A stretch of 40,663 bases of DNA from a virus (Duplodnaviria; Heunggongvirae; Uroviricota; Caudoviricetes), in IMG/VR virus record IMGVR_UViG_2802429245_000006. One strand, written 5' to 3'. Both the position numbers and the translations under genes were made by a program. Positions 8,551-40,663 of this stretch are shown one piece after another. The stretch's first letter is position 1, and every line of letters starts with the position of its first letter. The notes beneath the pieces are model-generated. The model did no database searches. It was not told the DNA's origin and saw only the letters and a list, made by a program, of their open reading frames with translations.

Positions 8551-8767
8551 CAGCTTTTCCTTACAGAGGGTGAATAAAAAAGCCGGTACCCACAAAAGTG
8601 GATACCGGCAGGTACAAAACAGCATGGTCAGATAAAGTGGTTTTTCCCGGACATAAATGCTTCCCCTCTCTCATCCGCCAGAGAAGTATCAGTCCGTTGT
8701 GTGCAATTCCGTTCTGCATGATGAAGAGATTCAGCTGCCTTTTCGCAGACCATTAACCACTATAAAC

Positions 8768-8803
8768 GATCGATAGCAACGATCGATACCTATTTTATCG
8801 ATC
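8768..8803. promoter_or_regulatory. agn43-type phase-variation switch: three clustered GATC sites (Dam methylation / OxyR operator)
   Basis: GATC at 8768, 8781 and 8800 inside a cgatcg-rich tract about 220-250 bp upstream of the flu start codon. Confidence 0.75.
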
Positions 8804-8922
8804 GTTTTATTCTATTAACAGCAAAGCAGTCACGCAAGAGAAACAGGAGGGGTATGAGGTGTTTGTGTCATGTTTTCAGTTGGTTAACGCAATGTAATCG
8901 GGTATTTCCCCTGGCAGACTGT

Positions 8923-12207: not shown

Positions 12208-12541
12208 CTCGAACCCCAAGACCGGCAATGGAATCGCTTTGTAGAGCTAGAGTTAGTGCCGCATCCTCGTATTGAGCACAGCGAAGCGATTGAGCTAGAC
12301 TATGGCATGACGGGGGGCGCTCTAAAGGTTGAGATTAGAGCGGCCTCGGCAGGCTACTTACTCAGACAATGGAATGTGGATTGTTCTACCAACGCCACAC
12401 TCCAAGATGGTGGAGCTCAATTGTACTTAAAGAACAGAGCAACACTTTATGGAGTTAAAAACATCATGCTAGCTCCAGGGATTGAAAAAGAACTTGGTAA
12501 CTAATGCACAAAAACGAACTTGGCGCAGGGAATAAATTTTG

Positions 12542-15500
12542 ATGAAAATAATCGATAACCTTAACAACCTATTAGGTGACGAGCTTCAACAGACGCTGAC
12601 ACCGAATACAAAGTTAAAGATTGCTGCGTCTTGCTTTTCTATTTATGCGTATGAGGCTCTCAAAAAGGAGTTAGCGAAGATAGACTCACTTGAGTTCATC
12701 TTCACATCACCTACTTTTGTCGCAGATGAAGTTACCGATAAATTCAAAAAAGAAAAACGAGAGTTCTTTATTCCCAAAGCAGGGCGTGAACGCAGCCTTT
12801 ACGGAACTGACTTTGAAATACAGTTAAAGAACAAGCTCACTCAAAAGGCGATCGCCAAAGAGTGTGCAAACTGGATCAGAAAGAAAGCGACATTCAAATC
12901 AAACAAAACTGATTCTCCAATGCAGTCGTTTGTTGTGACGGAAGCACCTAGACAGCAAACAGAGACAATGAGTGCAGTTTTTGCTCCGGTTAGCGGGTTT
13001 ACGGCGGTTGATCTAGGGTATCAGCGAGGAAATGCTATTTCGAATTTTGTGCAAAAAATCGATGAGCCAAATTTCACAGCCCAGTACTTACAGTTATTCG
13101 ACCAAATTTGGAAAGACCCTGCGAAGCTTCAAGATGTTACTAAAACAATTTGCGAGCATATAGAGTCTGTCTACCAGGAAAACTCGCCTGAGAAAGTCTA
13201 TTTCATTATTTTGTATAACATTTTTAATGAGTTCCTTGATGATATTACAGAGGATGTATTACCAAATGATCGAACCGGCTATCAGGACACCTTGATTTGG
13301 AACAAGTTATTCAACTACCAAAAAGATGCCGCGACTGGGATTATCAATAAGTTAGAGACCTATAACGGCTGCATTCTGGCTGATAGTGTTGGTCTTGGTA
13401 AAACATTTACAGCGTTAGCTGTCATCAAGTATTACGAGCTCAGGAACAAGTCCGTACTTCTACTGTGTCCGAAAAAATTGGCAGATAACTGGCTCAACTT
13501 TAATCGAAACTTAAAGACAAATATCTTTGCTAAAGACCGTTTTAGTTACGATGTTTTGTGTCACACAGATTTGAGCCGAATCTCTGGCGAATCCTTCGGT
13601 ACTCCGTTGAATAGAATAAACTGGGGTAACTATGACTTGGTCGTCATTGATGAGTCGCATAACTTTAGAAATAACGATGCAGTGAAAGATCGAGAAACCC
13701 GATATCAGAAACTGATGAATAAAGTTATTCGGGCTGGCGTGAAAACCAAAGTCCTGATGCTATCAGCGACACCAGTGAATAATAGATTTACTGACCTGAG
13801 AAACCAGCTTGCGTTAGCTTATGAAGGCGAGTCGAGCAATCTCACAAAGCATCTTAAAACCACAAAAAGCGTAGAACAGATCTTCAACCAAGCACAAGCC
13901 GCATTTAACGCTTGGTCCAAACTCGACCCAGAGACGCGAACAGCTAAAGCCATACTCGATGCCTTAGATTTCGACTTTTTTGAACTGCTTGATAGCGTCA
14001 CTATCGCTCGCTCACGAAAGCACATCACAACATTCTACGACACAACAGATATTGGCCATTTCCCTGAACGTAACAAGCCAATCTCGTTTCATTGTCCGCT
14101 TACTACTCGTTCGGATGTAGTTAGCCTGAATGAGATCTTTGAACAGCTTAAGCTACTCAAACTATCTGTTTATGCGCCAGTGAGTTATATCCTCCCGAGT
14201 AGATTGAAGAAATATGAGGAGATGTATGACACGGAAGTTGAAGGCGGAAAAGGTAAGTTAAAGCAAAGCGACCGTGAAAAAAGTTTGGTTGCATTGATGA
14301 CAACGAACCTCCTAAAGCGTCTTGAGAGCTCCGTATACTCGTTCAGAAGCACCTTGCAATCTCTCCATGATAACCATGTTCGTGTTCTAGGTATTATCGA
14401 CGAATTCTATAAGCGAGACGGGCAAACCGAAGTGAGCAGTCTCGTTGAAGCGCTAGAGTCTATTGAAGCAGATGAAGACGATATGCCTTCTTATCACGAT
14501 ATGGAAATCGGTAACAAAATCAAAATTAAGCTAATGGATATGGATCTTCCATCCTGGCAGCAGGATTTAGATGGCGATTTGGAGCTGATCAAAGGGTTAC
14601 TAGATTCTGTTAGCAAAATTAAGCCAGAAGAAGATGCTAAGTTGCAGCATCTGAAATCACATATTGCTGCAAAAATAAATAATCCGATAAATCCTGGAAA
14701 CCGGAAAATCATCGTGTTCACGGCGTTTGCTGACACCGCTCAGTATCTGTACGAGCAGTTGTCACCTGTGATGTTAAGCGAGCATAGAATCCATACTGCG
14801 ATGATCACTGGTGGTGCCAGTTTACCTAAGACCACCTTAAAAACCGGACGAAAAGGTTACGACACACAAGAAGTGCTCACCTTGTTTTCTCCAGTTTCCA
14901 AATCGAAAGCCAGTGTATTACCTGACGAACCCGCTGAAATCGATTTGTTGATTGCTACAGACTGTATCTCTGAAGGGCAGAACTTACAGGATTGCGATTA
15001 CTTAATTAACTTTGATATTCATTGGAATCCAGTTCGGATTGTTCAGCGCTTTGGGCGTGTTGACCGTATTGGCTCGGCGAATAAATGTATTCAGTTAGTT
15101 AACTACTGGCCTGATATATCGCTGGATGAGTACATCAACTTAAAAGAACGTGTTGAAAGTCGAATGACGATTGTTGACGTAACAGCGACCGGTGATGACA
15201 ACGTTCTAAGTTGTCAAGCGAATGATGTGTCGTACCGTAAAGAGCAGTTAAAGAAACTACAAGAAGAAGTCATCGAGCTTGAAGATTTAAAAACGGGGGT
15301 TTCTATCACCGATCTAGGTCTAAACGAATTTCGAATGGACCTGCTAAATCTAATGAAACTCTACGGCGAACCAAGAAATGCACCAAGCGGCATGCATGCG
15401 GTGGTTGAGGCTAAGCCAGAATTAGGGTTATTGCCTGGCGTGGTGTTTGCGCTGAAAAACGTTAATAACAGTATCGATAGAGATCTGCAAAACAGGCTCC

Positions 15501-15874
15501 ACCCTTATTACCTTGTCTATGTATCGAATGAAGGGGACATCGTCGCTAATCATTTTGAGGTAAAGAGACTATTAGATTTAATCCGAAGTAGCTGTAAAGG
15601 TCAAACAGCACCGCTCAGTGAGATTTGTGCTTTATTTAATCGCTTAACGCAAGACGGTCGAGATATGCAGTGTTACTCTCACCTTCTAACAGATGCCATA
15701 AAAAGCATGGTTGAAGTTAAGGAAGAAAAAGATATTGATAGTTTGTTCAATGGTGGCGCTACCTCAGCTTTAGTGAATACATTTGCCGGGCTTGATGACT
15801 TTGAATTGCTGGCATTTATTGTGATCCAGCAAAAGCACCTGATGGAAAATAGTGCTCAGGATGAGGTTAGCTAG
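12542..15874 (+). CDS. SNF2-family helicase/ATPase with an unassigned ~250-aa N-terminal domain
   Basis: Motif I ADSVGLGKT, motif II VVIDESHNFRN, motif III LMLSATPVNN, C-terminal helicase motifs ...TDCISEGQNLQ... and QRFGRVDRIGS; 1110 aa from the ATG at 12542. Low-GC coding sequence. Confidence 0.85.
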   Translation: MKIIDNLNNLLGDELQQTLTPNTKLKIAASCFSIYAYEALKKELAKIDSLEFIFTSPTFVADEVTDKFKKEKREFFIPKAGRERSLYGTDFEIQLKNKLTQKAIAKECANWIRKKATFKSNKTDSPMQSFVVTEAPRQQTETMSAVFAPVSGFTAVDLGYQRGNAISNFVQKIDEPNFTAQYLQLFDQIWKDPAKLQDVTKTICEHIESVYQENSPEKVYFIILYNIFNEFLDDITEDVLPNDRTGYQDTLIWNKLFNYQKDAATGIINKLETYNGCILADSVGLGKTFTALAVIKYYELRNKSVLLLCPKKLADNWLNFNRNLKTNIFAKDRFSYDVLCHTDLSRISGESFGTPLNRINWGNYDLVVIDESHNFRNNDAVKDRETRYQKLMNKVIRAGVKTKVLMLSATPVNNRFTDLRNQLALAYEGESSNLTKHLKTTKSVEQIFNQAQAAFNAWSKLDPETRTAKAILDALDFDFFELLDSVTIARSRKHITTFYDTTDIGHFPERNKPISFHCPLTTRSDVVSLNEIFEQLKLLKLSVYAPVSYILPSRLKKYEEMYDTEVEGGKGKLKQSDREKSLVALMTTNLLKRLESSVYSFRSTLQSLHDNHVRVLGIIDEFYKRDGQTEVSSLVEALESIEADEDDMPSYHDMEIGNKIKIKLMDMDLPSWQQDLDGDLELIKGLLDSVSKIKPEEDAKLQHLKSHIAAKINNPINPGNRKIIVFTAFADTAQYLYEQLSPVMLSEHRIHTAMITGGASLPKTTLKTGRKGYDTQEVLTLFSPVSKSKASVLPDEPAEIDLLIATDCISEGQNLQDCDYLINFDIHWNPVRIVQRFGRVDRIGSANKCIQLVNYWPDISLDEYINLKERVESRMTIVDVTATGDDNVLSCQANDVSYRKEQLKKLQEEVIELEDLKTGVSITDLGLNEFRMDLLNLMKLYGEPRNAPSGMHAVVEAKPELGLLPGVVFALKNVNNSIDRDLQNRLHPYYLVYVSNEGDIVANHFEVKRLLDLIRSSCKGQTAPLSEICALFNRLTQDGRDMQCYSHLLTDAIKSMVEVKEEKDIDSLFNGGATSALVNTFAGLDDFELLAFIVIQQKHLMENSAQDEVS

Positions 15875-15877
15875 TTT

Positions 15878-16564
15878 ATGAACTCACCTTGGATATTTCC
15901 TGACAACGCAAAGTTCGGTCGAGTCGTGCCTAAGAACAAAATATATGAGCACAGCGCGGCAAGCACTGGGTTGAAGTCACTTTTTGTAGAGCAAGTAGAG
16001 CAAATCCTTTGGGCTTACAAGCTATCGCCTAGCACGCTGAATATTCCTCAAACCAGTGAGGTCAGTGAAATACAGGTTTTCAGTGTGAAGCTTAAAGGTG
16101 ACTCGATAGACGACAGCGTACTAAAAGCCATTGATTTGGCGATACCTTTTCCCATTCTATTTGAGGTATGGGAAGCTCGCGGTGAGCAAGGCCACTACGT
16201 TGCTTGCTATAAGCGTAAGGCAGAAAATGATCAGTCAAAATGGTTTTGTAGCCGCTATTTACGTTCAGAAACCTTCTATTCAAGTGATTCATTAGCAGTG
16301 ACTTCAGAAGTTTTGGGTTTGCCTACCGCTATCGATATGGCGGAGCTGTATCAAAAGCTTCTTACTCGCTTGTTACCCATACCCCAACGAGCCGCTGAGA
16401 GTATAGAAGAGGCTATTCAACGCCTGGAGGCAATTCAGGCATTGGAAAAGCAAATCTCGCAATATAAGAAGAAGGTTCATGCCGAGAAACAGTTTAACCG
16501 CAAGGTTGAGCTCAATAAGCAGTTAAAGAATTTAAGGTGCGAGCTTCAAGAGTTACTCGCATAA
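15878..16564 (+). CDS. Small accessory protein (DUF4391-like, with C-terminal coiled coil)
   Basis: 228-aa ORF starting 3 nt after the helicase stop. Family assignment is from recalled gene neighbourhoods, not a verified match. Confidence 0.55.
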   Translation: MNSPWIFPDNAKFGRVVPKNKIYEHSAASTGLKSLFVEQVEQILWAYKLSPSTLNIPQTSEVSEIQVFSVKLKGDSIDDSVLKAIDLAIPFPILFEVWEARGEQGHYVACYKRKAENDQSKWFCSRYLRSETFYSSDSLAVTSEVLGLPTAIDMAELYQKLLTRLLPIPQRAAESIEEAIQRLEAIQALEKQISQYKKKVHAEKQFNRKVELNKQLKNLRCELQELLA

Positions 16565-16637
16565 AGAATAAACAATTTCAATCAGTTAAATAGTGCCACA
16601 TGCTTTTTATGCAAGGCATCACGCAAAAGGTGAACAC

Positions 16638-18629
16638 ATGGACAAATTAAAGATGCACAGCCCCGACATGACGCAGCAAAACATAGAGAAAATTCAGGCG
16701 TTGTTTCCGAACTGTGTGACGGAATCAAGAGGAGCTAACGGAGAGCTAAAGTTAGTCATTGATTTTGACCAACTTAAACAAGAGCTATCAAATTCAATCG
16801 TTGAAGGCCCGCAAGAGCGCTATCAGCTGAACTGGCCCGGTAAGCGAGAAGCACTACTAACAGCGAATGCACCTATTGCCAAAACCTTAAGACCTTGTCG
16901 AGAAGAAAGTGTCAATTTTGACACCACTAAAAACCTCTTTATTGAAGGCGATAACCTTGATGCATTGAAACTGCTACAAGAGGCATATATTGGAAAAGTC
17001 AAATTAATATATATTGATCCACCTTATAACACCGGTAATGACTTTATATATGAAGACGATTTTTCTGAAAATGCAGAGAGCTTCTTAATAAAGTCCAACC
17101 AGAAAGATAGTGATGGTAATAAATTAGTAGCGAATACAGAAGCTAATGGCAGATTTCACTCGGATTGGCTAAGCATGATGTACTCACGTTTGAAATTGGC
17201 TCGTAATCTACTAAGTGATGAAGGAGCTGTGATTATCTCAATTGATGAGAATGAACACAGCAACATAGTGAAATTAGGTGGTCTTATATTTGGCGATGAA
17301 AACTTTTGTGGCGAAATAGTCTGGAAAAATAGTAGTAAAAATGACCAGAAATATGTCTCAATACAACACGAATACCTTGTTATATTTGTTAAATCAAAGC
17401 AAAACAATAAGGGGGATTGGGTTGAGAAAAAAGAAGGCCTAGACCAAATTTATCAAGCGTTTGATGGTTTTAAACGCAAACATGGCAATGACTGGGATGC
17501 AATACATGCAGATGCGCTTGAATGGTATAGGAGTTTCCCTGCATCCAATCCAATTTCATCAAGTAAACATTATAGCTGGATGGACGAGCGCGGTGTATAT
17601 TTCCCAGATAATATTTCAGGCCCAAACGATGGTCAGTATGTTTATGACGTCATCCATCCTGTGACTAACAAACCATGCAAAATGCCTTCTACAGGATGGC
17701 GCTATCCAGAATCAACGTTAATTGAAAGAATAGCTGATAATCGAGTGCACTTTGGAAAGGATCATAAAACTGTTCCAAACAATAAAACGTATCTAAAAGA
17801 TACTGAATATCAGAGCCTTACGAGCATGCGCTTCGTTGATGGTCGCAGCGCTTCTAAAAGGCTGCAAACCCTTTTCGGTGATAAAGTTTTTACAAACCCT
17901 AAAGATGAAATTTTATTAAAAGATTTATTTAAAGCAATTGGTGTATCAGAAAAAGATATAGTCCTTGATTTCTTTGCAGGTTCTGCATCGACGATACATG
18001 CTGTTTTTGAACTCAATAAAGAAACTGGCAGTAATTGTTCGTGTATCCTAGTGCAGCTTCCAGAAGATCTGAAAGAAATGTTAAAAACGGCTAAAGGTTC
18101 TGCTAAGAAAGTCACGCAGAACGCTATCAATTATTTGAAAAATAAAGGCCTACCACAAACAATTAGTGAAATTGCAAAAGAACGTATTCGACTTTCGGGG
18201 CAAAAGTATACCGAAGATTTCGATATTGGATTCCGAGTTCTCAAAGTAGATACCTCCAACATGGCGGATGTGTACTACTCTCCAGATCAAGTTACTCAGG
18301 GTTCGTTAGACTTATTGGTAGATAATATTAAAGCAGACCGCACTGATGAAGATTTACTTTTCCAGGTTCTACTTGATTGGGGCGTCGATTTAACCTTGCC
18401 AATTAGAAAAGAAACGATTCAAGGTAAATCGGTATTCTTTGTCGATGATGATGCACTGGTGGCCTGTTTTGATCTGCGCATAAATGAAGCTTTGATTAAA
18501 GAGTTAGCCACAAAAGAGCCACTTCGCGTAGTGTTCCGTGATGACGGCTTTGAGTCTGATGCAGTAAAAATCAATGCTGAGCAGATTTTCAAGCAAGTGT
18601 CGCCACATACTGAAGTTAAAGCGATATAA
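16638..18629 (+). CDS. mod: Type III Mod-like N6-adenine DNA methyltransferase (beta class)
   Basis: Catalytic motif [12 protein letters not shown] precedes AdoMet motif [12 protein letters not shown], the order typical of Type III Mod. ATG at 16638 with AAGGTG upstream; the ORF-track frame begins 15 codons earlier. Confidence 0.85.
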
Positions 18630-18638
18630 GGAGGGATC

Positions 18639-18728
18639 ATGACAAATTTTACCGGATTAAAATTTGCACACAGCCTTGTCGCAGACAAGGTGTGCCCGAA
18701 GTGTTGCGTACATGGAGGTGCGCAATGA
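18639..18728 (+). CDS. Possible 29-aa leader peptide (uORF) coupled to res
   Basis: ATG at 18639 is 4 nt after AGGAGG; translation [29 protein letters not shown]; its TGA overlaps the res ATG (ATGA at 18725-18728). Confidence 0.3.
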
Positions 18729-21700
18729 AACTTAAGTTCAAAGTCCAACCTTATCAAACTGTTGCCGTAGAGTCGGTTGTTGACTGCTTTGCGGGGCAAC
18801 CTAACACATCCGGCGTTACCTACCGAATCGACCCTGGCGTTGCCAAGGATAAGTTTGGCAATGCTGGTTGGGATATGAGCGACCAAGACGGTTTTAAAAA
18901 TGCAGAACTCGCGATCACTGAATCGCAGTTATTGCAAAATATTCATGGTGTTCAAAGTAGACAGAACCTCCCTGTTTCAGAAGCGTTAGTCAGCAATGCT
19001 AGCGCTAAGATTAATCTCGATGTTGAAATGGAAACCGGTACTGGTAAGACATATTGCTACATCAAAACCATCTTTGAGATGAATAAGCGCTATGGCTGGA
19101 GCAAATTTATTATCGTTGTGCCTAGCATCGCCATTCGTGAAGGTGTTTACAAGTCGCTGCAAATCACAGGTGAGCATTTTGCTCAGAATTACGACGGTAA
19201 AAAGGCCCGGTTCTTTATCTATAACTCGAAACAATTGCACCAGTTAGAGAGTTTTTCTTCTGACAGTGGCATCAATGTGATGGTCATTAATATTCAAGCC
19301 TTTAATGCTTCAGGAAAAGACAATAGACGTATTTATGAAGAGTTGGATGACTTTCAGTCTAGGCGTCCTATTGATGTTATTAGTGCAAACCGTCCAATCC
19401 TGATTTTGGATGAGCCACAAAAGATGGAAGGCAAGAAGACATTAGATGCCTTAGCCAAATTCAAACCACTGATGGTACTTCGATATTCGGCCACGCATAA
19501 GACAACACATAATAAAGTGCATCGCCTGGATGCGCTTGACGCTTATAACAATAAGCTGGTTAAGAAAATTGCCGTTCGTGGTATTTCAGTAAAAGGCTTG
19601 GCGGGAACGACAGCCTATCTATATTTGGAATCCATCGAGATCTCGAAAAAAATGCCAGTGGCTCGCATTGAGATCGAAGTTAAACAACAAAATGGTATTA
19701 AACGCATACCCAAGAAGGTTACTAAGGGCGATAATCTTTTTGATCTTAGCAATGGTCTGGACCAGTACCGTGACTTTGTGGTTACTGATGTCAACGCGAT
19801 TAACGACACGGTTGAATTCAAAAATGGCCATGTTTTAACCACGGGCGATGCGACGGGAGACGTGACCGAAGAGACCATTCGCCGAATACAGATCCGCGAG
19901 ACAATTAAAGCGCACCTTGAAAAAGAAAAAACACTTTTTAACCAGGGTATAAAGGTTCTCTCTCTCTTTTTTATTGACGAAGTCGCAAAGTATAGGGACT
20001 ACTCTCAAGCCGATGAAAAAGGTGATTATGCTCGCGTTTTTGAAGAAGAGTACTCCTTGCTTGTACAGGAATATCTTGATGAGTTGACTCTTTTACCGAG
20101 TGAGCAGACTGATGCCTATAAAGCCTATCTATCGGCCATTGAAGGCTCCAGAACGCATAATGGTTACTTCTCAATTGATAAGAAATCAAATCGTCTTCAG
20201 AACCCCGGCTTTAAAGTCCGTGGTGAAGATGCCGGGCTATCAGACGATGTAGATGCTTATGATTTGATTCTAAAAGATAAGGAAAAGTTACTTTCGTTTG
20301 AAGAGCCTACTCGGTTTATCTTTTCACATTCGGCCTTGCGCGAGGGGTGGGATAATCCAAACGTATTTGTCATGTGTATGTTAAAACACAGCGACAACAC
20401 TATCTCTCGTCGTCAAGAAGTTGGGCGTGGTTTACGTCTGGCCGTCAATAAACATGGTGACAGACAAGACCATCCGGCAACTGTGCATGAAATTAATGTT
20501 TTGTCGGTGATTGCAAGTGAAAGCTATAAAGACTTTGTCACGAATCTGCAAAAAGAGATCAGCGAGTCTCTCTCAGCGAGACCTAGAAAAGCAGATGAAG
20601 CTTATTTTACGGGTAAGACAATTACAACAGCTGATGGACCTGTAGAAGTAACACCTGTCATGGCTAAGCAAATTTATAAGTATTTGCTTAAAAATGATTA
20701 TACCAATGACGTTGACGATTCAATTGCGCCATCATTCCACCAGGCTAAGGCTAGTGGACAGTTAGCGCCAATGCCTGCTGAGTTAGAGCCTTACCGCGAG
20801 CAAATATTGACCCTGATTGACGGTGTTTATAGTGAAGCGCAATTGCCAGGTGTTGGTGATGATCGTAAACCTAAAAACAATCCGTTGAATGCTAATTTTG
20901 ATAAGAAAGAGTTTCAGGAGCTTTGGCACAAAATCAATCGCAAAGCGGTTTATAAGGTTGATTTTGATTCGTCTGAGTTGATTAAAAATTGTATTCGGGT
21001 ACTCAATAAAGAGCTTAAGGTAACGCCTCTTCAGTACACGATTCAAGATGGTGTTCAATTGGATGGCATTACCGACGAACAACTCAAAGCTGGACAAAGT
21101 TTCAAGGTGAAAAACACTGAGACTGAAACTCATCAATCGAGCATTCATTCTGCTGTTCGTTATGACTTGGTTGGTAAGTTGGCTGAAAATTGTGTGCTGA
21201 CTCGCAAAACAGTCGCCGAAATACTGATGGGTATAGAACCTGTAGTATTTGCACAATTTAAGCAGAACCCTGAGCATTTTCTCGCTGAGGCTTCACGCCT
21301 TGTGAAAGAGCAAAAGGCATCTGTGATCATCGAGAAGCTATCATATGATCCAACGAACGAATCTTATGATGTTGATATATTCACGGCAGAGCAAAAAATC
21401 ACTGATATGACAAAAGCCGTTAGTGGCGTTAATAAGCATATTTATGATTATGTTGTCGTTGATTCACAAGGCATTGAACGGGACTTTGTTACCGAGCTTG
21501 ATACAAGCAAAGAAGTCGTGGTTTATGCAAAACTGCCTCGTGGTTTTCTGATACCGACGCCTGTTGGCGACTACAACCCTGATTGGGCGATTTCTTTCAA
21601 AGAAGGAAGTGTTAAACACATTTACTTTATTGCAGAGACTAAAGGAACGATGTCTTCGCTTGAATTGCGTGGCATAGAAGATCGCAAGATTGAATGTGCT

Positions 21701-21802
21701 AGGAAATTCTTTGAAAAAATTAATGCAGAGATAACGAGTGAAAACGTCAAATATGATGTTGTAACGAGTTACTCGAAATTAATGGAAGTCATAAGCGGTT
21801 AG
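18725..21802 (+). CDS. res: Type III Res-like restriction subunit (helicase plus C-terminal PD-(D/E)xK nuclease)
   Basis: Walker [11 protein letters not shown], motif [13 protein letters not shown]-like RYSATHK, motif [12 protein letters not shown]-terminal ...NPDW...FIAETKG nuclease-like motif. ATG at 18725 with GGAGG upstream. Confidence 0.85.
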
Positions 21803-28346: not shown

Positions 28347-29978
28347 ATGGTAACTCGGACAATGCAACAAAAGTATGATCGTGTTTTATCTGGCGAATCC
28401 CATCCATTCCCTGGCATATACGAGGCGGTTTCCGAACAACTCCTTTTGCTCATCTTTAAGGCTCGTCAGCTATATCAGAATCCAGAATATCGCCCCTGGT
28501 TTGAAGAACAGCACAGAGTTCTCTCTGCATTACGTGCTAATACAGAGCTCTTGAGAATATTTAGAGAACAAAGAAACGCGGAAGAACCAGAGCTTATTAT
28601 TAAAGAATCTACATTACCCCTACTCACTAATTCTAATCTTACAGATGCGCTTAATATTATGTGCCATTTATACAATGGTTTTGATGAAGGAAATATCAGT
28701 CTGAAAACCTGGGGGGCGATGCAAGAGGTACAGACAACATCAACCTTTATCAGCCCGGGACCGAGAACCTGGAAAACACCTGAACTGGCAAAGTTTGTAG
28801 GAGATGATTTATTTAATATTCTGACTGAATGTAAAGCCTGGAGTTCACCAATTCCAGCAGAAACCCGACAGGGCTATTGCCATCAGGATCTGTCTGTTGC
28901 ACACTCCTGCACCTCAGAGTTACTGGCACACCTGAATCAATACCATGAAATTGATGAATCAGCAATACTTGCCAGAGTTATTGGTATGACGGTTAACGGA
29001 TTCTACAAGAAAAATAATACAGACCTCCCAGAATGGCTATCCCCCTTTAAAGAGGAACATAAAATATTCAGAGATTGTCTGGAGCAAAAGACCGAGGATG
29101 TAATCAGACTGAAAGAACAACTGTTGAAAACAGGACGTTCAGAATTCGTGAATAATTTGTGTCGGGTCGCCAACTGGTATGAAATTAAGTCAATATACGA
29201 TGAATATGTCCGTCTTTATGCCAATGAAATCATTGGTTGGTTCAACAAAACCATGGAATATTTTAAACCAACAGATTTTATCCGATATACATGGAAATTC
29301 GCAACAGTTACTCCAGGTAAAGAGACAGAAACCAAGCATACAACTGCATGGGAAAAGGATTATTGCCAGATAACTATACAACGTGATGAACTTCTGAGAT
29401 TGATTCACACGAATACCCTTCAGGATGCAGTAATTTATCTTTGCCATTGTCTGCAGAAGAAATACAAGAAATCATCCCAAAATGAGATAGAGTTTCCAGG
29501 AATAAAACCTCCGGCATCAGAGAGTGAAATTAATATAACAGATAGTTTTGAATTTTATTCTCTCCTGGAGCTCAGTAAAGATAATGAGAGACGGCTGGAA
29601 ACATTTCAAAAATGGTATGAAAAAAATAAAGTTTTGTTAGAAAGTCATAAACAAAAACGAACAGAGAAGATTGACGTTGCCGTACGACTTGTAGGGCTGA
29701 AAGCCTATGATCTGCATGAAGGGATTCCGGATAGTCCAAAACGAAAAGTTAAAGATGGCATAAATGAAGACATCAAAGCCGATACCAGTTTACGCCTGCC
29801 AAAGACAAATATAAGTGATACGTCGCTAAACCGTTATCGCCGCACTGTTAAGGAGATTATCAATAACGAAATCGACGCATTCCTGTTGGAACAGAAGAAA
29901 AAAAATAAAAGATTTCCCTACAGTGAAGATAGAGATGTGATTCGACCTTTATGGGGAAAATGCCTGACCGGGCAGTAG
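28347..29978 (+). CDS. Hypothetical protein, 543 aa, low GC, function unknown
   Basis: Long clean ORF in AT-rich DNA, divergent from alpA; no motifs recognised. A second possible ATG lies at 28362. Confidence 0.6.
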   Translation: MVTRTMQQKYDRVLSGESHPFPGIYEAVSEQLLLLIFKARQLYQNPEYRPWFEEQHRVLSALRANTELLRIFREQRNAEEPELIIKESTLPLLTNSNLTDALNIMCHLYNGFDEGNISLKTWGAMQEVQTTSTFISPGPRTWKTPELAKFVGDDLFNILTECKAWSSPIPAETRQGYCHQDLSVAHSCTSELLAHLNQYHEIDESAILARVIGMTVNGFYKKNNTDLPEWLSPFKEEHKIFRDCLEQKTEDVIRLKEQLLKTGRSEFVNNLCRVANWYEIKSIYDEYVRLYANEIIGWFNKTMEYFKPTDFIRYTWKFATVTPGKETETKHTTAWEKDYCQITIQRDELLRLIHTNTLQDAVIYLCHCLQKKYKKSSQNEIEFPGIKPPASESEINITDSFEFYSLLELSKDNERRLETFQKWYEKNKVLLESHKQKRTEKIDVAVRLVGLKAYDLHEGIPDSPKRKVKDGINEDIKADTSLRLPKTNISDTSLNRYRRTVKEIINNEIDAFLLEQKKKNKRFPYSEDRDVIRPLWGKCLTGQ

Positions 29979-30064
29979 ATCACTGAGGGGATAACAGCCC
30001 GGTTATCCCCTGTTTGTTCTGCTTCAGGTTGCCAGAGCTCTAGGAACACGAGGCAATCGGCAAA

Positions 30065-30661
30065 TTATGCGGCTTTTCCATTAACAGATTCGGCCACAAG
30101 AACGACAGTGTGTTTGTTTCGCTCAGGATGTTCACTCCAGATTTCTGATTCCGGGATGCTTTCCCCGTCATAACTGATCCGTTCGCCATCAAACGGGTAA
30201 TACCGTGCGGAATCAGTATCTAAAATAAACACCTTCAGATTCGTTGAACGACGCGCAATATGCTGCCAGAGAGCTTTTCCTCCTTCATATTGCTCGTTAT
30301 CACTTAATAGTACAACGCCCGCTTTTGTGACTATCGTTTCATAAACAAACGTTGCAAGACCAACATCGCGTACAGCTCCATCGACAACAATCCCTTCAAT
30401 CTGAGCAACATCCTGTTCTTCCCAGAATTTCTGGACAAACACGCCTTCAAGTCGGGGACGACGCTGAAGCTCCAGAGTGGCAACAACCTTATGGCGAACA
30501 TCACCATCAATAACAGAAGGTGCAGCTTCGATTACCGCAGCAAACGGAGTCTTTGGATCCCAGATGATCTGGTAAAGCACGCCCTGAATAGTTACTCCAT
30601 CCAGTATCGAAAAACGACGGGCTACAGTAGCAGGGGAGTAAGACATTGGAATTACAGCCAT
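30065..30661 (-). CDS. Hypothetical protein, 198 aa, function unknown
   Basis: ATG at 30659-30661 with GAGGGG upstream; the ORF-track start at 30691 is a GTG without an RBS. Confidence 0.55.
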   Translation of the reverse strand: MAVIPMSYSPATVARRFSILDGVTIQGVLYQIIWDPKTPFAAVIEAAPSVIDGDVRHKVVATLELQRRPRLEGVFVQKFWEEQDVAQIEGIVVDGAVRDVGLATFVYETIVTKAGVVLLSDNEQYEGGKALWQHIARRSTNLKVFILDTDSARYYPFDGERISYDGESIPESEIWSEHPERNKHTVVLVAESVNGKAA

Positions 30662-30790
30662 TTTAGAATCCCCTCTGAGTAATACAGGCACGAAAATTTA
30701 CCTCAATAATTATAGTAAACAATACCAGAGCCAGGCGCATCAACAATACTCATCAATTGTACTCAAGTCGTACAACGATCAGGAACGCCC

Positions 30791-32107
30791 TCACCTTCTA
30801 CCAAACAGATTAACAACATTATTACCTGTCTGCTGTTGGTGGTTATTAACCCGGTCCTCCCAGATCTCAAGTGCTCTGCGTTTTTCTGGCAAATAATCGT
30901 ATCGATCATAATGTTTTGAACTGACATCGTTCAACGCATGATTTTGAATACGATCGCGGATTTCCTTACTGATTCCAGCTTCTCCCATTAACGTTTTACA
31001 GGTCCGACGTAAGTCACGTGCTGTAAAAATTTTAAAGTCAGGATTACAAGCCCGGAAATACATGATAGCGCGAGCCAGACTGTCCGTACGAACCGGACGC
31101 TTACCATTAGTCGAAAGCGGGAAAATGTAAGGGCTCGATTTTTCTTTTGTTAACTCCTGCACACAAGATAATTCCTGTAATGCTGATTCAGTCAACGGTA
31201 TCAAATGTTCTCGCTTATTTTTAGAGACATCCGCAGTCACCAGCAGCGTTTTTTGCTGAAAATCAACATCACACCACTGACTGGCGATCATTTCGAAGGG
31301 ACGTTGCCCCCCGGTATAGATACAGAATCGGATCAAATGTTGCATCAATAATCCAACGTTGGTTGCTTCAGCAAAATGTTCCATTAGAAAACGCAACTCT
31401 TCGAGTGTCAGCCAGGTGTCACCGACTTTTTCAGCAGATGACTGTTTCGGTATCACTGATACCGGATTGGCCTCCAGCCCAAAAGTAATCCCTACACTTG
31501 TGTTCATCGGATCGTTATCAGCTTTCAGACCATAGTTAAATGCAGCCATCAGGTAAGAACGGATCCGGTTAGAGTGAACCACTGCACCGCGCTGAATGAT
31601 CCCGGCCAGGATATGTTTAATCTGTCCGGAAGTCACATCTTTAGCTTTAGTCTCACGGGGGATCACTGTATAGCATTCATTTTCAAGGCGTTTCAGAACA
31701 TCCTGCCATGTTCTCTTATTATCAATTTTCATTTTGTTAACATAACCATGAATCAATGCTTCAAATGAGCCCTGTGATTGATGGAGTTGTATCCGCTGCT
31801 GTTCTGCAAGCTGTTGTCGCTCCAGTTCTGTCTGGGGATCCTTTCCTTCAATGAGCCAGGCACCATACTTTTTTGCCAGTTCATTCGCTGTAGCCAGTTT
31901 CATCTCAGGCCATATACCCAATTGAATGAATCTTTCTTTTTTCCCTTTTTCCACGTAATAGCGGAAATAGAAAATTTTGCTGCCAGAAGACTGAACTTTG
32001 ATGCCAAGTCGTCCAGTGCCACGTTGAGAACTGTTGCTCCAGACATAGAACGATGTCTTTTTTGCTTTCAATGCTCGGATAGCTGTTTCAGTTAGATTGA
32101 CGGCCAT
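30791..32107 (-). CDS. int: Tyrosine-type site-specific integrase (P4/CP4-like)
   Basis: 438 aa; C-terminal catalytic region with ...HALNDVSSKHYDRYDY... and ...RDLRRTCKTLM... typical of tyrosine recombinases; ATG at 32105-32107. Confidence 0.9.
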   Translation of the reverse strand: MAVNLTETAIRALKAKKTSFYVWSNSSQRGTGRLGIKVQSSGSKIFYFRYYVEKGKKERFIQLGIWPEMKLATANELAKKYGAWLIEGKDPQTELERQQLAEQQRIQLHQSQGSFEALIHGYVNKMKIDNKRTWQDVLKRLENECYTVIPRETKAKDVTSGQIKHILAGIIQRGAVVHSNRIRSYLMAAFNYGLKADNDPMNTSVGITFGLEANPVSVIPKQSSAEKVGDTWLTLEELRFLMEHFAEATNVGLLMQHLIRFCIYTGGQRPFEMIASQWCDVDFQQKTLLVTADVSKNKREHLIPLTESALQELSCVQELTKEKSSPYIFPLSTNGKRPVRTDSLARAIMYFRACNPDFKIFTARDLRRTCKTLMGEAGISKEIRDRIQNHALNDVSSKHYDRYDYLPEKRRALEIWEDRVNNHQQQTGNNVVNLFGRR

Positions 32108-32906: not shown

Positions 32907-33449
32907 TTACTTGTCTTTATCCGGCTGAAACTTATCAGGCACATTTCCGGTAGTTTCCATCAGATAATCGGACAGCATTCGCGGGATGTTTTCATCAAGT
33001 TTTGTGCATGCGTTACAGGCTCTGACAACTTCTTTTTTCAGGCCATCCAGCATGACGGGGGTCATCTGTGGGAAGCTCCTTTGCATAGTAAGCGGCAGGC
33101 TGTCCATGATTGATGAAATCTGACTCGCCAGTTTTGAAAGCGCGTACATGCAAAACTCTGTATCAATCACGTCACCGCGATCGCGCTCGTTTTTAAGTTC
33201 CTGCGCCTCCGCCTGTGCTGTCAGTAATCTGATCCTGACTCGTAAGAGTTCATCATCATCAATCTCGCCTTTGTCGTTTGTAAGCTGGCTAATTGCATTG
33301 TTAACCCTATTGTCTATCACGCTGGCAACATCATAAAACGCCTCACGGCCTTTACGTTCAACGGGAGTCACTCCCCACTTGTCGAATGCTGTAGCACTTA
33401 CCCGGCAGCTTTGCGCCATGGTTTTTTTGTTCATCAGGTGCGATTTCAT
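32907..33449 (-). CDS. Terminase small subunit, lambda Nu1-like
   Basis: ...LTAQAEAQELKNERDRGDVIDTEFCMYALSKLASQISSIMDSLPLTMQRSFPQM... parallels lambda Nu1 as recalled. Start uncertain: ATG at 33449 or 33434. Confidence 0.75.
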   Translation of the reverse strand: MKSHLMNKKTMAQSCRVSATAFDKWGVTPVERKGREAFYDVASVIDNRVNNAISQLTNDKGEIDDDELLRVRIRLLTAQAEAQELKNERDRGDVIDTEFCMYALSKLASQISSIMDSLPLTMQRSFPQMTPVMLDGLKKEVVRACNACTKLDENIPRMLSDYLMETTGNVPDKFQPDKDK

Positions 33450-33650
33450 CAATATCCCAACTTGGTCAAGGTTTCAGGTTGGTGTGTTGGTGTTATCTTT
33501 CCCTTTTTATTCATGGAGATAGAGCAAACAACAAAACCACCACCACCACCCTGAAAAAGCTCATAAATAGCGAAAAACCGCGAGGTCGCCGCCCCGTAGC
33601 CTACCGGATCGCCGGAAAGGACCCGCCAGCCAGAACGGGCCCTAATTTCA

Positions 33651-34034
33651 TCAACCAATCAACTTATAGCGACCATCCCGTGCATTGCGGCGTACACGCT
33701 CAATCTTGAGGCATAGCGCCGCATCTGGCTTTTTTGGGACAGGTACGCGGCAATATTCAGAAGCTCGAGGAATATTGTTTATCCAGTCGATCACTTCGCT
33801 TAAATACCAGGCCTTACGCCCTTCCGTAACCTGTACGCGTTCGGGGAACTCTCCGCGAGCCTCAAGGTTTAGCAATGTGCGACGGCTAAGGGTAGTAAGT
33901 TCCATCACCTGATTCATATCAACAAGGCGTTCACTTAAACGCATTTTGTCAGCAATAGCCTTTAATTCCTCTACTGCTGGATCCGGATACATCATTTCGG
34001 CAATTGGCTTAAGGTCATTGTAATGATTCTGCAT
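33651..34034 (-). CDS. HTH DNA-binding protein (AlpA/excisionase-like HTH with N-terminal extension), 127 aa
   Basis: ATG at 34034 with AGGGGGAT upstream; contains ...LTTLSRRTLLNLEARGEFPERVQV... HTH-like segment. Confidence 0.5.
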   Translation of the reverse strand: MQNHYNDLKPIAEMMYPDPAVEELKAIADKMRLSERLVDMNQVMELTTLSRRTLLNLEARGEFPERVQVTEGRKAWYLSEVIDWINNIPRASEYCRVPVPKKPDAALCLKIERVRRNARDGRYKLIG

Positions 34035-34045
34035 TGTATCCCCCT

Positions 34046-34387
34046 TTACACACGAGCCAGCGGCTGAACAGAAATACCTGAGCCAACAAACGCGGCAACC
34101 TTTGCCGACAGTTCTTTTACAGACTCAGGCCAGTTCAGAGCATCAACATTTAAAACACCTGTCTTATAAACCTGTGCCTGTGTTTTTTTCGCTGTGTCGA
34201 TTTGTACAGCGGAAACATAAACCGCTTTGCCTGCGCTCGTTCCATCCCATACCACTAGCGCACCAGTTGCATCTTCCTGCATCAGTGGCGTAAACGCAGG
34301 TATTACCCCTTTATTGGCTGAAAATATCCCCAGCGTAGTAACCAGTGCTTCAGTGCCAGACATGAGTTCAGTGTAATGAGTAGCCAT
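34046..34387 (-). CDS. Head decoration protein, lambda gpD-like
   Basis: 113 aa; ...PLMQEDATGALVVWDGTSAGKAV... parallels the gpD pattern PLMLD...LVAWDGT; strong RBS AAGGGGGAG. Confidence 0.65.
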   Translation of the reverse strand: MATHYTELMSGTEALVTTLGIFSANKGVIPAFTPLMQEDATGALVVWDGTSAGKAVYVSAVQIDTAKKTQAQVYKTGVLNVDALNWPESVKELSAKVAAFVGSGISVQPLARV

Positions 34388-34396
34388 TGCTCCCCC

Positions 34397-35443
34397 TTAG
34401 CCAATGCGAACGGTAACAAAACGATTGATGCGGGCCGGTATTGGCTGTGGTGCTGAATGTGTCTGCACATATTCAATAGCCGGATCACCAGGCACAATAT
34501 AGTTTTTCGGTGCAAGTTCGGCTTTAGTCAGCCCCATCCGAATTAGCTCCGGATCCTGAATACCGCCATAAGCGACAATCCCCTGAAGAGCCGTATTGCC
34601 AAGCACCATCAAATCAGGATCAAGGAAATATTTTTCAGTTCCGTCCTCGTCGGTATAACGCCCGCTGTAAACAACAATCGCAACATCGCCCATATACCCT
34701 TTAAAACTCACCGAATCACCAAGGTCTTTAAGGGCCGTTTCCAGTTCGGAATTAGAACCACGACGGGTATCCAGAGCCTCTTTTATCGCTCTGAATGAAC
34801 GGTATTTCTTCCATACATTACCGCCCATAATGATGATATTAGTGACGCCCTCACTAAATTCTGCGTAGCTCTCAATATCATCATTTGGATCAAAAGTTTC
34901 TTTATCCTTACCTGACCACTCAGCACCGCCAGACTGCGTGATAATATTTTGTGGTTTTATATTCCAGTCCAGTTCATAACGTTCAATACCATCGCCCTCA
35001 ATGATATTTTTCCCCGTTGTGATTGCCTGAACAGCAAGCCATTCAATACGTGCACGTATAGCTTTAGCCTGATTTACAATCGCCTGTTTAACTTTAATAT
35101 TACGCGCCCCAAAAGCATTGTATTGTTCAGGTGATACACCAGCAGGGCGCACAGCTAACTTATTTGGATCAATGCTGCTTTTCGGTTTCATATAGCCAGG
35201 GCGAATTGTTTTTGATTCGTATCCCTCATCTCGTGAAACTTTACTGCCCACCATAGGAGAGCAAAACGCCGCGATCGGGATATTTGGATCGTCGATCGTA
35301 TCAAGAATAATGTCTCTCGATTCAAACATTACCGAGCGAGTGAAAAACAAACTGGTAAACAACGCATTTAATTTTTTTTGCACATCTTCAGCATTAGCCA
35401 CCTGCACAAGCTGTGTAGGCGAATATAAATCAACCATACTCAT
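34397..35443 (-). CDS. Major capsid protein, lambda gpE-like
   Basis: From the ATG at 35443 (AAGAGG upstream): MSMVDLYSPTQLV... and a long block ...NIITQSGGAEWSGKDKETFDPNDDIESYA...DTRRGSNSELETALKDLGDSVSFKGYMGDVAIVVYSG... closely parallels lambda E. Confidence 0.85.
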   Translation of the reverse strand: MSMVDLYSPTQLVQVANAEDVQKKLNALFTSLFFTRSVMFESRDIILDTIDDPNIPIAAFCSPMVGSKVSRDEGYESKTIRPGYMKPKSSIDPNKLAVRPAGVSPEQYNAFGARNIKVKQAIVNQAKAIRARIEWLAVQAITTGKNIIEGDGIERYELDWNIKPQNIITQSGGAEWSGKDKETFDPNDDIESYAEFSEGVTNIIIMGGNVWKKYRSFRAIKEALDTRRGSNSELETALKDLGDSVSFKGYMGDVAIVVYSGRYTDEDGTEKYFLDPDLMVLGNTALQGIVAYGGIQDPELIRMGLTKAELAPKNYIVPGDPAIEYVQTHSAPQPIPARINRFVTVRIG

Positions 35444-35721
35444 CCTCTTTACATTCATTACAAATAATTGTGAATATATTCTATTACCGATGTCTGCTAT
35501 GCGAATACATGCAACCAAGTGCAATGTTGTATAAAATATGCCGTGACAACTTCAGTGCTGATAATTCGTGTTAATGTATTTACTTCCTTTGGTCGGGATT
35601 TATGTAGCATGCCGGAAAATCTATTTTTTTCCGGCATCTTTTTGTTTGCAGAATTTAAAACGGTATATTATCGCCGTACGGATCATCATTCCCCGACTGT
35701 TGTTTTGCCCTGTTCAGTGCG

Positions 35722-39129: not shown

Positions 39130-39450
39130 TTATCCCCGATTTGAATCAGTATTCGCTTTCTTTATGGCATTTAATGCATCTGTGGCATTTTCAATGGTGC
39201 ACCGTAACGAAATATCAAAATGTCCAAGCATTGCCAGTAACAAACCGATATTACCCATATCAATGCGCATGGCCTTTTCGTCATAGTCCTCATTTTCTGA
39301 CGCATGCCACATCAGGCTACCAATTGACGCAACGGCCATTGATATATTGTCAGTCGCCCCATCCGCAGCGGAATAAACCTTTTTAGCAATATCATGCTCA
39401 CAGTTAAAATGCGGATTAATCAGGTACTGGTAATTTGACATATCAGGCAT
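39130..39450 (-). CDS. Hypothetical protein (106 aa)
   Basis: ORF in the same co-directional gene string; no family recognised. Confidence 0.45.
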   Translation of the reverse strand: MPDMSNYQYLINPHFNCEHDIAKKVYSAADGATDNISMAVASIGSLMWHASENEDYDEKAMRIDMGNIGLLLAMLGHFDISLRCTIENATDALNAIKKANTDSNRG

Positions 39451-39646
39451 GGCACACCCCCTGACGAATACGGGCGGCGAATACCATCACGCAGCCAGCC
39501 GGGGATTGCTGGCGTGCTTCCTGTTCGCTGGTGGCCACGATGGTAATCACACGCGGTTTTGCGGCGCTCAGGGCGATAAAACGCCAGGCGAATTTATTCA
39601 GGTTGTGCGAATCCCGCCCTTGCGGGTGTATGGTATGATTTCTCAT
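39443..39646 (-). CDS. Hypothetical small protein (67 aa)
   Basis: ATG at 39644-39646 with GAGGTA upstream; corresponds to the C-terminal part of the 334-aa ORF-track frame, which I consider spurious as a whole. Confidence 0.35.
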   Translation of the reverse strand: MRNHTIHPQGRDSHNLNKFAWRFIALSAAKPRVITIVATSEQEARQQSPAGCVMVFAARIRQGVCHA

Positions 39647-39742
39647 AGCTACCTCGATACTCTCGTTATCGTTGGTGGTTAGAAGCCCTGCGAGTGGTAA
39701 CGACACTTGCGGGGCTTTGTTTTTTGTTGCACTTACTGTTAA

Positions 39743-39786
39743 TGTACGTACGTAATATTGATGATAATAGGAGTTACGTACGTACA
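39743..39786. promoter_or_regulatory. Operator-like inverted repeat overlapping the RBS and start of the RHH gene
   Basis: TGTACGTACGTAA (39743-39755) and TTACGTACGTACA (39774-39786) are exact reverse complements, separated by 18 bp containing TAGGAG. Confidence 0.5.
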
Positions 39787-39977
39787 TGTCAACATTAAAG
39801 CGGGATAAATCACCACGCGGCGAGGGATGGTCGCCGACATTCCAGATACGAATTAGCAAAGAACTACGCCAGCAAGTAAACGAGGCAGCAACCGCCGATG
39901 GCCTAACCCTCGGCAATTGGTTTAAAGAATTAGCTCGTGCCGAACTAAAGCGACGTGGCATTGAACCTAAAGGCTGA
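39786..39977 (+). CDS. Ribbon-helix-helix (Arc/MetJ/CopG-like) putative repressor, 63 aa
   Basis: ...FQIRISKELRQQVNEAATADGLTLGNWFKELARAEL... has the beta-strand/helix pattern of RHH proteins; divergent from the satellite gene string. Confidence 0.5.
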   Translation: MSTLKRDKSPRGEGWSPTFQIRISKELRQQVNEAATADGLTLGNWFKELARAELKRRGIEPKG

Positions 39978-40453
39978 TGTATGACTGAAAAGCAGACCGA
40001 TAACAAACTTTCTCTACCAGAGAATAAACCAGCAGGCTTCTTACCAAGAAAAATCCTTGATGAGATCAAACGCCGCCAGCGGCGCAAGGCCAAAGAGCTG
40101 GAGTAACCATCACCAGCGCCGTGGTGCGGTGAACTGTGGCGCACAGGGTTACAGGTATCTACGATGACTGACAAATCATTAAAGAAATTATCCTCATCCA
40201 AGAAAAAACAACGCAAAAATGCGGTAAACGAACATGAACCGGAGAGATTCGCACCATGTGCGTTTATCCTTGAGAAGTACCTTAAAGAGTATTCTAGGAA
40301 AATACGCTCATTGCAGGCATGGCAGCGAATCGAGCCAGACTGATAGCATTGCCCACCAGCCAACAACCTGGTATTCTGGATATGCTCAAGTTTAGTGTTA
40401 TGCCACTGGCGGCCCTCTGCGGTCGCCTTTGTTTTATGTGCCATCACTCCCCC

Positions 40454-40663
40454 TTACACCGTCTGCGTTCTGCGAGTGGATGCAAGATAAGCATCGAGAT
40501 CAGTGCGCATATACAGCACTTTGCGCCCCAGCTTATGGAAAGGGATTTTTACCTTGCCAGTACAGGCCCAGTTCGCCAGCGTTTGATTGTTAACGCCAAG
40601 GTAGGCAGCAGCTTCAGCACGTGTAAGGCGGTCAGTTGATAAATCAGATTTCTTTAAATTCAT
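40454..40663 (-). CDS. AlpA/excisionase-family HTH protein (69 aa)
   Basis: ATG at the window edge (40661-40663); ...LTRAEAAAYLGVNNQTLANWACTGKVKIPFHKLGRKVLYMRTDLDAYL... is an excisionase/AlpA-like HTH. Confidence 0.65.
   Translation of the reverse strand: MNLKKSDLSTDRLTRAEAAAYLGVNNQTLANWACTGKVKIPFHKLGRKVLYMRTDLDAYLASTRRTQTV

Follow-up and report, generated by a model that had tools for sequence, protein, structure and literature searches.

Introduction

The immI region of phage P22 combines the ribbon-helix-helix (RHH) repressors Mnt and Arc, the divergent promoters Pant and Pmnt, and the sar antisense RNA. Copy control of plasmid pMV158/pLS1 pairs the RHH repressor CopG with an antisense RNA, RNA II, and immunity of P4 relies on the CI RNA and its seqA/seqC targets. 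For Gram-negative PICIs, the searchable literature describes activation by AlpA and identifies no repressor, and genome surveys have treated satellite HicB-like and YlcI/YnfO genes as accessory or toxin–antitoxin genes (PMC13612085).

Here we describe an intergenic region of an E. coli phage satellite, contained in a 40,663-nt stretch of DNA (the window, by which we mean the whole stretch analysed), whose control logic appears closest to that of P22 immI (Arc/Mnt plus sar RNA) and of pMV158 (CopG plus RNA II). As in P22, a small RHH repressor would act at an operator over a divergent promoter pair, and a countertranscript would run from inside the first regulated gene, over its ribosome-binding site, to an intrinsic terminator; as modelled, the RHH protein of the window is structurally closest to Arc. 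Unlike P22 immI, the locus has one RHH gene instead of two, belongs to a satellite and not a phage, controls an operon that leads from an Icd-like gene to replication and capsid genes instead of ant, and would encode an RNA without detectable sequence homology. The parallel with pMV158 lies in a replication operon that would be governed by an RHH protein at its promoter and by a terminator-ended countertranscript at translation initiation. In pMV158, however, the RHH gene heads the repressed operon, whereas that of the window is divergent; the context there is a plasmid, and the sequences are unrelated.

The locus also resembles P4 and the immI region of P1/P7 (c4-icd-ant), where control of an icd-type gene is RNA-based. 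Like its P4 counterpart, it occupies the slot between a Vis/AlpA-like gene and a primase-leading operon, and the first ORF of that operon is Icd-like and matches a PHROG built around the P4 'cI' ORF. The P4 backbone runs from vis through a promoter, the 'cI' ORF and epsilon on to alpha; its sense strand matches C4 (RF01695) with 74.9 bits, which served as the positive control for our C4 search, and isrK/c4-a1b1 with 60.8 and 44.1 bits, and there is no divergent repressor gene. In the window, by contrast, the RNA lies on the antisense strand, and C4/P4 CI RNA (RF01695, clan CL00128) had no match, either across the whole window at the gathering score or in 39300-40663 at E <= 10. Because the same slot holds none of P4's RNAs, these elements appear to solve P4's problem with a different device. 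A further parallel is Stl (Rpr) of SaPIs and Gram-positive PICIs, a divergent repressor gene between int and the replication operon that comes in many allelic specificities, although Stl proteins are larger HTH proteins (PMC6092414). Finally, prophage proteins of the YlcI/YnfO family (NF041551), whose function is unknown, occupy the same slot in one class of the cassettes described below.

We consider it probable that two adjacent devices operate at this locus: a swappable RHH immunity cassette acting on the main promoter, and a cis-antisense RNA directed against the Icd-like mRNA. The repeats, the position and conservation of the promoter, the co-variation of operator with repressor, and the structure and strand of the RNA were read from the sequence and its comparison with relatives.

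The locus lies in a phage satellite

The window is part of an E. coli chromosome, and an element 99.8% identical to it across 39400-40663 is present in four complete genomes; E. coli A36, TUM1886, 06-00048 and GF4 are carrier strains. Based on the RefSeq copy and Pfam, a tyrosine integrase, a hypothetical gene and an HTH_17/excisionase (AlpA-like) gene come first, followed by three small + strand ORFs. The - strand then carries the Icd-like gene, a hypothetical gene, DUF4222, a DUF927 primase (38842-36704), SSB, a lambda-type capsid protein E, decoration protein D, a second AlpA-family protein and a Nu1-like small terminase. Beside the RefSeq annotation of an identical element, there are Pfam matches to DUF927 primase, Phage_cap_E, HDPD, Phage_Nu1 and Phage_AlpA. 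The element thus has the integrase, AlpA-type regulator, primase and packaging genes by which Gram-negative (PICI-like) phage satellites of ~10-15 kb are recognised. By its gene content, the layout is that of a phage satellite.

The homologues of lambda capsid E (PF03864), decoration D (PF02924) and Nu1 small terminase (PF07471) lie at 32907-35524 (- strand), with the second AlpA-family gene at 33651-34034; genes for a portal or a protease were not seen. Given these homologues, a helper phage would probably be lambdoid. Directly past the terminase end of the satellite (28347-32107 region) is a second tyrosine integrase (30791-32107, - strand), which suggests a tandem island. Two ORFs near this integrase, of 543 and 208 aa, have no Pfam or PADLOC match. 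Farther away, a defence-type cluster on the + strand (12539-21802) encodes an HKD plus Snf2 helicase-like protein (1111 aa), a 228-aa ORF, a type III methyltransferase (678 aa) and a type III restriction enzyme (1036 aa). At 8569-8805 (- strand), an Rfam IS102 RNA match (69.8 bits, above the gathering score) adjoins the end of a 974-aa ORF, the latter without a PADLOC match.

The Icd-like gene (67 aa; 39443-39646, - strand) is the first in the leftward operon. It is annotated in RefSeq and matches NCBIfam phage_ICD_like (1.9e-18) and PHROG 6196 (1.3e-42). A 140-bp gap separates it from a divergent gene of 63 aa, and it is in this gap that the features of interest are found. The rightward transcription unit of the divergent gene ends at a terminator-like hairpin plus T-run (40408-40437, + strand), before the convergent AlpA/excisionase-like gene (40663-40454, - strand).

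A predicted RHH protein and its probable operators

A first-pass annotation of the sequence had described the 63-aa gene (39786-39977, + strand) as an RHH gene. The ORF is as stated, and the assignment agrees with profiles, an AF2 model and Foldseek, from which we predict an RHH repressor. Residues T18-F-Q20-I-R22 form the predicted DNA-reading strand, with helices at 25-37 and 42-56. The AF2 monomer model (mean pLDDT 73) forms both helices and lacks the strand. In Foldseek, the list consists almost entirely of RHH proteins, with P22 Arc first (target-normalised TM 0.85) and AtaR, AmrZ, PutA, CopG and ParG after it, at weak E-values (>= 0.12). The protein has the arrangement of an RHH fold, ~45 residues with an N-terminal strand and two helices, though the strand is unformed in the monomer model.

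Pfam scores fall under the cut-offs for HicB (17.6 bits; cut-off 21), Arc (12.2; 20.4) and DUF6290 (14.2; 27), and the sub-threshold Pfam and NCBIfam matches are exclusively to RHH families (HicB, Arc, DUF6290, YlcI_YnfO_N and RelB). With 20.3 bits against a cut-off of 30, the protein lies outside the YlcI/YnfO family NF041551. A PDB profile search returned Arc (E = 0.11), aligning PtFqiRis with Arc PQFNLRWP and hence T18/Q20/R22 with the base-contacting Arc residues Q9/N11/R13. Among relatives, these three positions change with the operator, reading P-H-R with GGTGTACACC and P-Q-R with GGTAATTACC. Homologues are 63-97% identical and all have the strand SPTFQIRI; some carry a precomputed PF05534 assignment and the database name 'HicB family antitoxin'. 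Models and profiles together support an RHH-like protein.

The inverted repeat reported in the first-pass annotation is exact, and its arms are one base longer than claimed. The left arm, ATGTACGTACGTAA (39742-39755; core GTACGTAC at 39744-39751), and the right arm, TTACGTACGTACAT (39774-39787; core at 39778-39785), are 14 nt each, 100% complementary and 18 nt apart, and the core is kept in relatives. Both arms include TACGTACGTA, which is self-complementary, so that they can be viewed just as well as a direct repeat with a 30-bp spacing. There are two copies of TACGTACGTA in the 40.6-kb window, both of them in the arms, even when one mismatch is allowed (0.42 expected). For the core GTACGTAC, the window count is 3, compared to 0.27 expected. 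The repeat had been described as overlapping both the ribosome-binding site and the start codon of the RHH gene. The second overlap is confirmed, as the right arm terminates on the AT of the ATG (39786); the first is not, as GGAG (39770-39773) lies directly upstream of the arm and outside it.

The only strong promoter match in the region faces left. This sigma-70-type promoter, P_left (39764-39792, - strand), has a -35 TTGACA (39792-39787), a 17-nt spacer and a -10 TATTAT (39769-39764), agreeing with the consensus at 11 of 12 positions; its -35 hexamer is complementary to ATGTCAA, with which the RHH coding sequence opens. The right arm fills the spacer between -35 and -10 and abuts the RHH start codon. 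We infer a start site at ~39757, which would place the left arm at about +3 to +16, over the predicted start; this arm also overlaps the -35 of the best rightward promoter candidate. These locations correspond to classical repressing positions for a promoter reading into the Icd-like/primase operon. P_left is predicted to drive the Icd-like/DUF4222/primase operon.

At homologue loci in Edwardsiella, Klebsiella and metagenomes, two GTACGTAC sites likewise lie upstream of the RHH gene, 30 to 35 bp apart, with the right one always abutting ATGTCAA. The retention of these sites indicates that protein and site travel together across genera and varied neighbours. In one case, a Klebsiella pneumoniae contig (L096, 1-2700), the RHH/operator/antisense-RNA module lies beside Mu-like genes (Mor, Gp27-like, Mu protease) instead of a primase, and therefore the module is not confined to one kind of element.

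Repressor and operator change together across relatives

Using the Icd-like protein, we gathered 8 genomic loci (from genome contigs) and 80 from IMG/VR, the latter contributing most of the diversity. These represent about 55 distinct versions of the region. At least 18 repressor/operator cassettes can be told apart in them, and we group these into two classes. Every cassette carries its own palindromes, in two or three repeats (TACGTACGTA, GGTGTACACC, GGTAATTACC, GTGTTGAACAC and others). Class A encodes short Arc-like proteins starting MST and has two copies of a cassette-specific palindrome in the intergenic region, TACGTACGTA in the window and AGGTGTACACCT, GGTAATTACC or TGGTACGTACCA in relatives. 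Class B encodes YlcI/YnfO proteins, which score 59.7-64 bits (above the NF041551 cut-off of 30), and has intergenic motifs in three copies, such as GTGTTGAACAC, GGTGTCAGCCAC and TGTGCGCACA. One class A protein passes the YlcI/YnfO cut-off as well (31.1 bits).

The leftward promoter stays fixed within each class although the operators differ completely. Its -35 lies on the ATG in four of the five class A cassettes and at -67 to -62 in 12 of 13 class B cassettes. Because the operator sequence switches with repressor type across relatives, we read the palindrome as the likely operator of the RHH protein, with binding as a prediction. The region had been proposed to be an autoregulated repressor locus. 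The operator half of that proposal gains from this co-variation, while the presumed target shifts. Because the best promoter of the interval faces the opposite way, we take the Icd-like/primase operon to be the probable main target and RHH autoregulation to play a lesser part. Most likely, then, the operator silences the main operon of the satellite as well as the RHH gene.

The immunity cassette would span about 39721-40072 and appears swappable. The 41-codon ORF (39981-40106, + strand) that begins 3 nt past the RHH gene bears on its boundary. Its final 33 residues share 58% identity with the C-terminal end of one class B (YlcI/YnfO-type) repressor, and 99% DNA identity with a relative carrying a YlcI/YnfO cassette restarts at 40073, within this ORF. 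The interpretation we favour is that it survives from the C-terminal half of a class B gene whose 5' part was exchanged for a class A cassette. The first-pass annotation had placed this ORF correctly; as a conserved partner of the RHH gene it does not hold up, being missing in most class A cassettes. Farther downstream, a 59-aa ORF (40164-40343, + strand) matches PHROG 21027 (5e-30; unknown function) and has 99% identical DNA in locus L002. This ORF is kept downstream of different cassettes, and is annotated in a relative but not in the RefSeq copy.

A conserved RNA structure antisense to the Icd-like mRNA

The hairpin and T-run noted in the first-pass annotation are real and make a strong terminator-like element. 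The hairpin, SL2, has a 15-bp stem (39682-39696/39704-39718) with eight G-C pairs and a 7-nt loop, and GTTTTTTGTT follows the stem. Six consecutive T's trail the stem on the + strand, and the - strand has no T-run; in several relatives, the T-runs after SL2 are weak. From its fold and its compensated pairs, we read SL2 plus T-run (39682-39727, + strand) as the intrinsic terminator of an antisense RNA. A second hairpin, SL1 (39646-39681, + strand), precedes it, with stems 39646-39653/39674-39681 and 39655-39659/39667-39671 and a 7-nt loop (39660-39666). Together they would form a cis-antisense RNA of ~80 nt (39646-39727, + strand), predicted from a covariance model, covariation and strand asymmetry. 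This RNA would cover the Icd-like start codon region, the Shine-Dalgarno sequence (GAGG, 39655-39652, - strand) and most of the 5' UTR, with SL1 complementary to the Shine-Dalgarno and start codon region. It had been suggested that a small transcript might end at the hairpin, and the predicted RNA fits that suggestion.

A candidate extended -10 for the RNA, TGgTATGAT (39631-39639, + strand), can be read from the sequence as a pattern. It lies inside Icd-like codons 3-6, seven bases upstream of SL1, and its variants (TATGAT, TATAAT, TATTAT, TATGCT, TACGAT) keep a constant distance to SL1 in all relatives, other genera with differing Icd-like N-termini included. One caveat here is that the candidate has no -35 in the window and that its overlap with coding sequence partly confounds its conservation.

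In silico, the + strand RNA of 39640-39730 folds with -40.1 kcal/mol (z = -5.8; none of 200 shuffles was as good), compared to -26.9 kcal/mol for the - strand, which forms a weaker hairpin. We aligned 46 distinct sequences from six genera. The two-hairpin structure is paired in 95.9% of cells on the + strand and 81.7% on the - strand, and G-U cells number 182 on the + strand versus 7 on the - strand. Given this asymmetry in G-U pairing and paired fraction, the selected structure is that of the strand antisense to the Icd-like mRNA. Doubly changed pairs number 12, compared to 4.9 ± 1.1 in shuffles (0 of 500 reach 12) and 2-6 in slid controls, bearing in mind that kinship of the aligned sequences can inflate such shuffle-based statistics. 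Nine of the 15 SL2 pairs show compensated changes, and RNAalifold found the same two hairpins independently. A conserved structure thus lies opposite the translation initiation region of the target, as in a cis-antisense RNA.

A covariance model (R1) has one match in the window (39640-39734, + strand only, 91 bits). On loci outside its build it scores 88-90 bits in Edwardsiella, 59 in a cf-PICI (vB_KppS-Ant, deposited as a phage), 32 in Klebsiella and 23 in a metagenome contig; P4 gave no match. Rfam has no family for the region, whether the whole window was searched at the gathering score or 39300-40663 at E <= 10, and weak matches to R1162-antisense and microRNA families (E 5-8) were dismissed as chance. 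A 77-aa ORF on the + strand (39449-39682) was considered as a gene terminated by the hairpin and rejected, because stop codons interrupt it in 19 of 53 variants and its start is gone in 7. No + strand gene is therefore left that would end there. Since this overlapping ORF is broken in those 19, we regard the + strand transcript as non-coding.

The SL1 loop (39660-39666) is hypervariable, with nine alleles and a diversity of 0.344; the value for the stems is 0.022, and that for third codon positions of the Icd-like gene 0.099. This is as expected if the loop sets pairing specificity, with relaxed constraint as the alternative. The loop may be the determinant of antisense specificity among co-resident satellites. 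SL1 loop alleles, SL2 alleles and repressor cassettes are found in varied combinations, indicating that they recombine independently. The hairpin had been grouped with the palindrome as one operator unit, a view that this independent recombination contradicts; we predict instead that it terminates an antisense RNA whose conservation is a separate matter from that of the cassette.

A model for the locus and its alternatives

We propose that the RHH protein would bind both sites centred on GTACGTAC, the first between the -35 and -10 of P_left and the second at the start site, and so turn off the Icd-like/replication operon. Binding would limit RHH synthesis too, because the same 46 bp must hold the RHH gene's own promoter. 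The ~80-nt RNA would begin at the extended -10 in the first Icd-like codons and stop at the hairpin plus T-run. Pairing to the Icd-like mRNA over the 5' UTR, the ribosome-binding site and the start region, it would block translation of leaky transcripts, and its transcription would collide with transcription from P_left. The predicted parts of this model are protein binding, repression, the 5' end and expression of the RNA, the effect on translation, and the lifting of the block by a helper.

A different reading, which we find rather unlikely, takes the + strand transcript chiefly for a long RHH mRNA leader in which the hairpin attenuates. RHH expression would then come, by read-through of the terminator, from the candidate promoter within the Icd-like gene, and any antisense effect would be secondary. 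Transcript and RHH gene share a strand and are ~60 nt apart, T-runs are imperfect in many relatives, and class A cassettes lack a convincing RHH promoter of their own (the best candidate matches 8 of 12 positions, and its start would fall downstream of GGAG). Class B cassettes, however, show a distinct -10 at a constant position (TATACT, with its end at about -30) and yet retain the same RNA, and the terminator of the window combines a long stem with six consecutive T's. An attenuator also leaves the complementarity of SL1 to the ribosome-binding site and the hypervariable loop unexplained. Attenuation is nevertheless compatible with the two-device model and could possibly hold alongside it.

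The palindrome might instead autoregulate the divergent RHH gene only, with the hairpin as a local terminator or insulator that has no role as a regulatory RNA. RHH proteins usually autoregulate, so this would be established behaviour, and the arms are placed accordingly in part, the right one abutting the RHH start codon and the left one overlapping the best rightward candidate. What makes this reading unlikely is that the sole strong promoter faces left, at a place conserved across cassettes and with the arms in repressing positions, and that SL1, which co-varies too, covers the Icd-like ribosome-binding site, both hairpins being kept in other genera.

We also considered whether the hairpin has its role in the leftward mRNA, where it could stabilise the 5' UTR or bind a protein, or whether a protein recognises it as a palindrome in the DNA. 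It is indeed located in the Icd-like mRNA 5' UTR, and the - strand can form a weaker hairpin. Both versions are very improbable given the strand bias described above in pairing and, almost exclusively on the + strand, in G-U pairs, given a T-run that trails the stem on that strand only, and given that a DNA site would conserve sequence and not pairing.

Least probable by our estimate is a toxin–antitoxin system, in which the RHH protein is the antitoxin, the palindrome its operator and the 41-aa or 59-aa ORF the toxin: RHH antitoxins are established to autoregulate via palindromes, and homologues bear the HicB antitoxin name and PF05534, but the downstream ORFs match no HicA or other toxin family (Pfam, NCBIfam, PHROG) and are missing in most cassettes, the 41-aa ORF is a repressor relic, the 63-aa protein has no HicB N-terminal domain and is matched as a C-terminal-type RHH segment alone, and the gene always lies opposite the main promoter of the satellite. 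With neither an adjacent HicA nor the HicB N-terminal domain, the locus falls outside HicAB, and because the repressor gene alone is the conserved unit, a toxin–antitoxin pair is unlikely.

Distribution and implications

Of 5426 complete E. coli genomes, 1405 contain sequences resembling 39628-39730, at up to six places per genome; these are annotated as part of an Icd-like CDS or left unannotated, nothing else. A DNA search of a phage collection with 39440-39800 gave no match, and tblastn with the Icd-like protein returned one record, a cf-PICI deposited as a phage. In LR881103.1 (L099, 'Escherichia phage vB_KppS-Ant'), which has the gene set of a capsid-forming satellite, the segment 8578-9552 includes a YlcI/YnfO-type repressor ORF that lacks annotation (8982-9185, - strand), as well as the motif of the antisense RNA (9284-9376, - strand); the annotated 324-aa CDS that covers both is probably spurious. 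In two other loci (L004, 1237-1695; L005, 1763-2158), a partial 'ash family'/Icd-like pseudogene separates the regulatory region from a second Icd-like gene, which is complete, and therefore the target gene of the module has been duplicated or displaced by insertion there.

In the searchable literature, which leaves older and subscription papers outside, satellite surveys make no mention of a repressor cassette or antisense RNA. Nor does it include a paper linking Gram-negative PICIs with RHH proteins, though a prior description is possible, and in the literature searched there is no repressor role for the YlcI/YnfO family. The region would thus be a variation on phage and plasmid control logic, in elements without a previously recognised repressor. 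An immunity or helper-sensing switch had been suggested for it. Immunity fits the cassette mosaicism; this fit does not extend to helper sensing.

Extending the model beyond the window is more tentative. It is possible, though we stop short of calling it probable, that a sizeable group of enterobacterial satellites (including those of the lambda-capsid-gene type, at least one cf-PICI, and other int/AlpA/primase islands) share an unrecognised two-layer immunity module. The first layer would be a recombining RHH or YlcI/YnfO repressor cassette with cognate operators, in at least 18 specificities. The second would be the cis-antisense RNA, whose hypervariable loop would provide a second, independently shuffled specificity; roughly one in four complete E. 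coli genomes contains the RNA part.

If true, these small satellite genes would be repressors, giving proteins of the YlcI/YnfO family a function, and the numerous operator specificities would mark immunity groups. Helper phages may then induce these islands by countering the repressors, in the way that staphylococcal islands are induced. For the antisense RNA, it would mean a widespread family of E. coli small RNAs that has gone unannotated, and the two-layer module would be the 'missing' master repressor of Gram-negative satellites and the basis of helper specificity and of heteroimmunity among co-residents.
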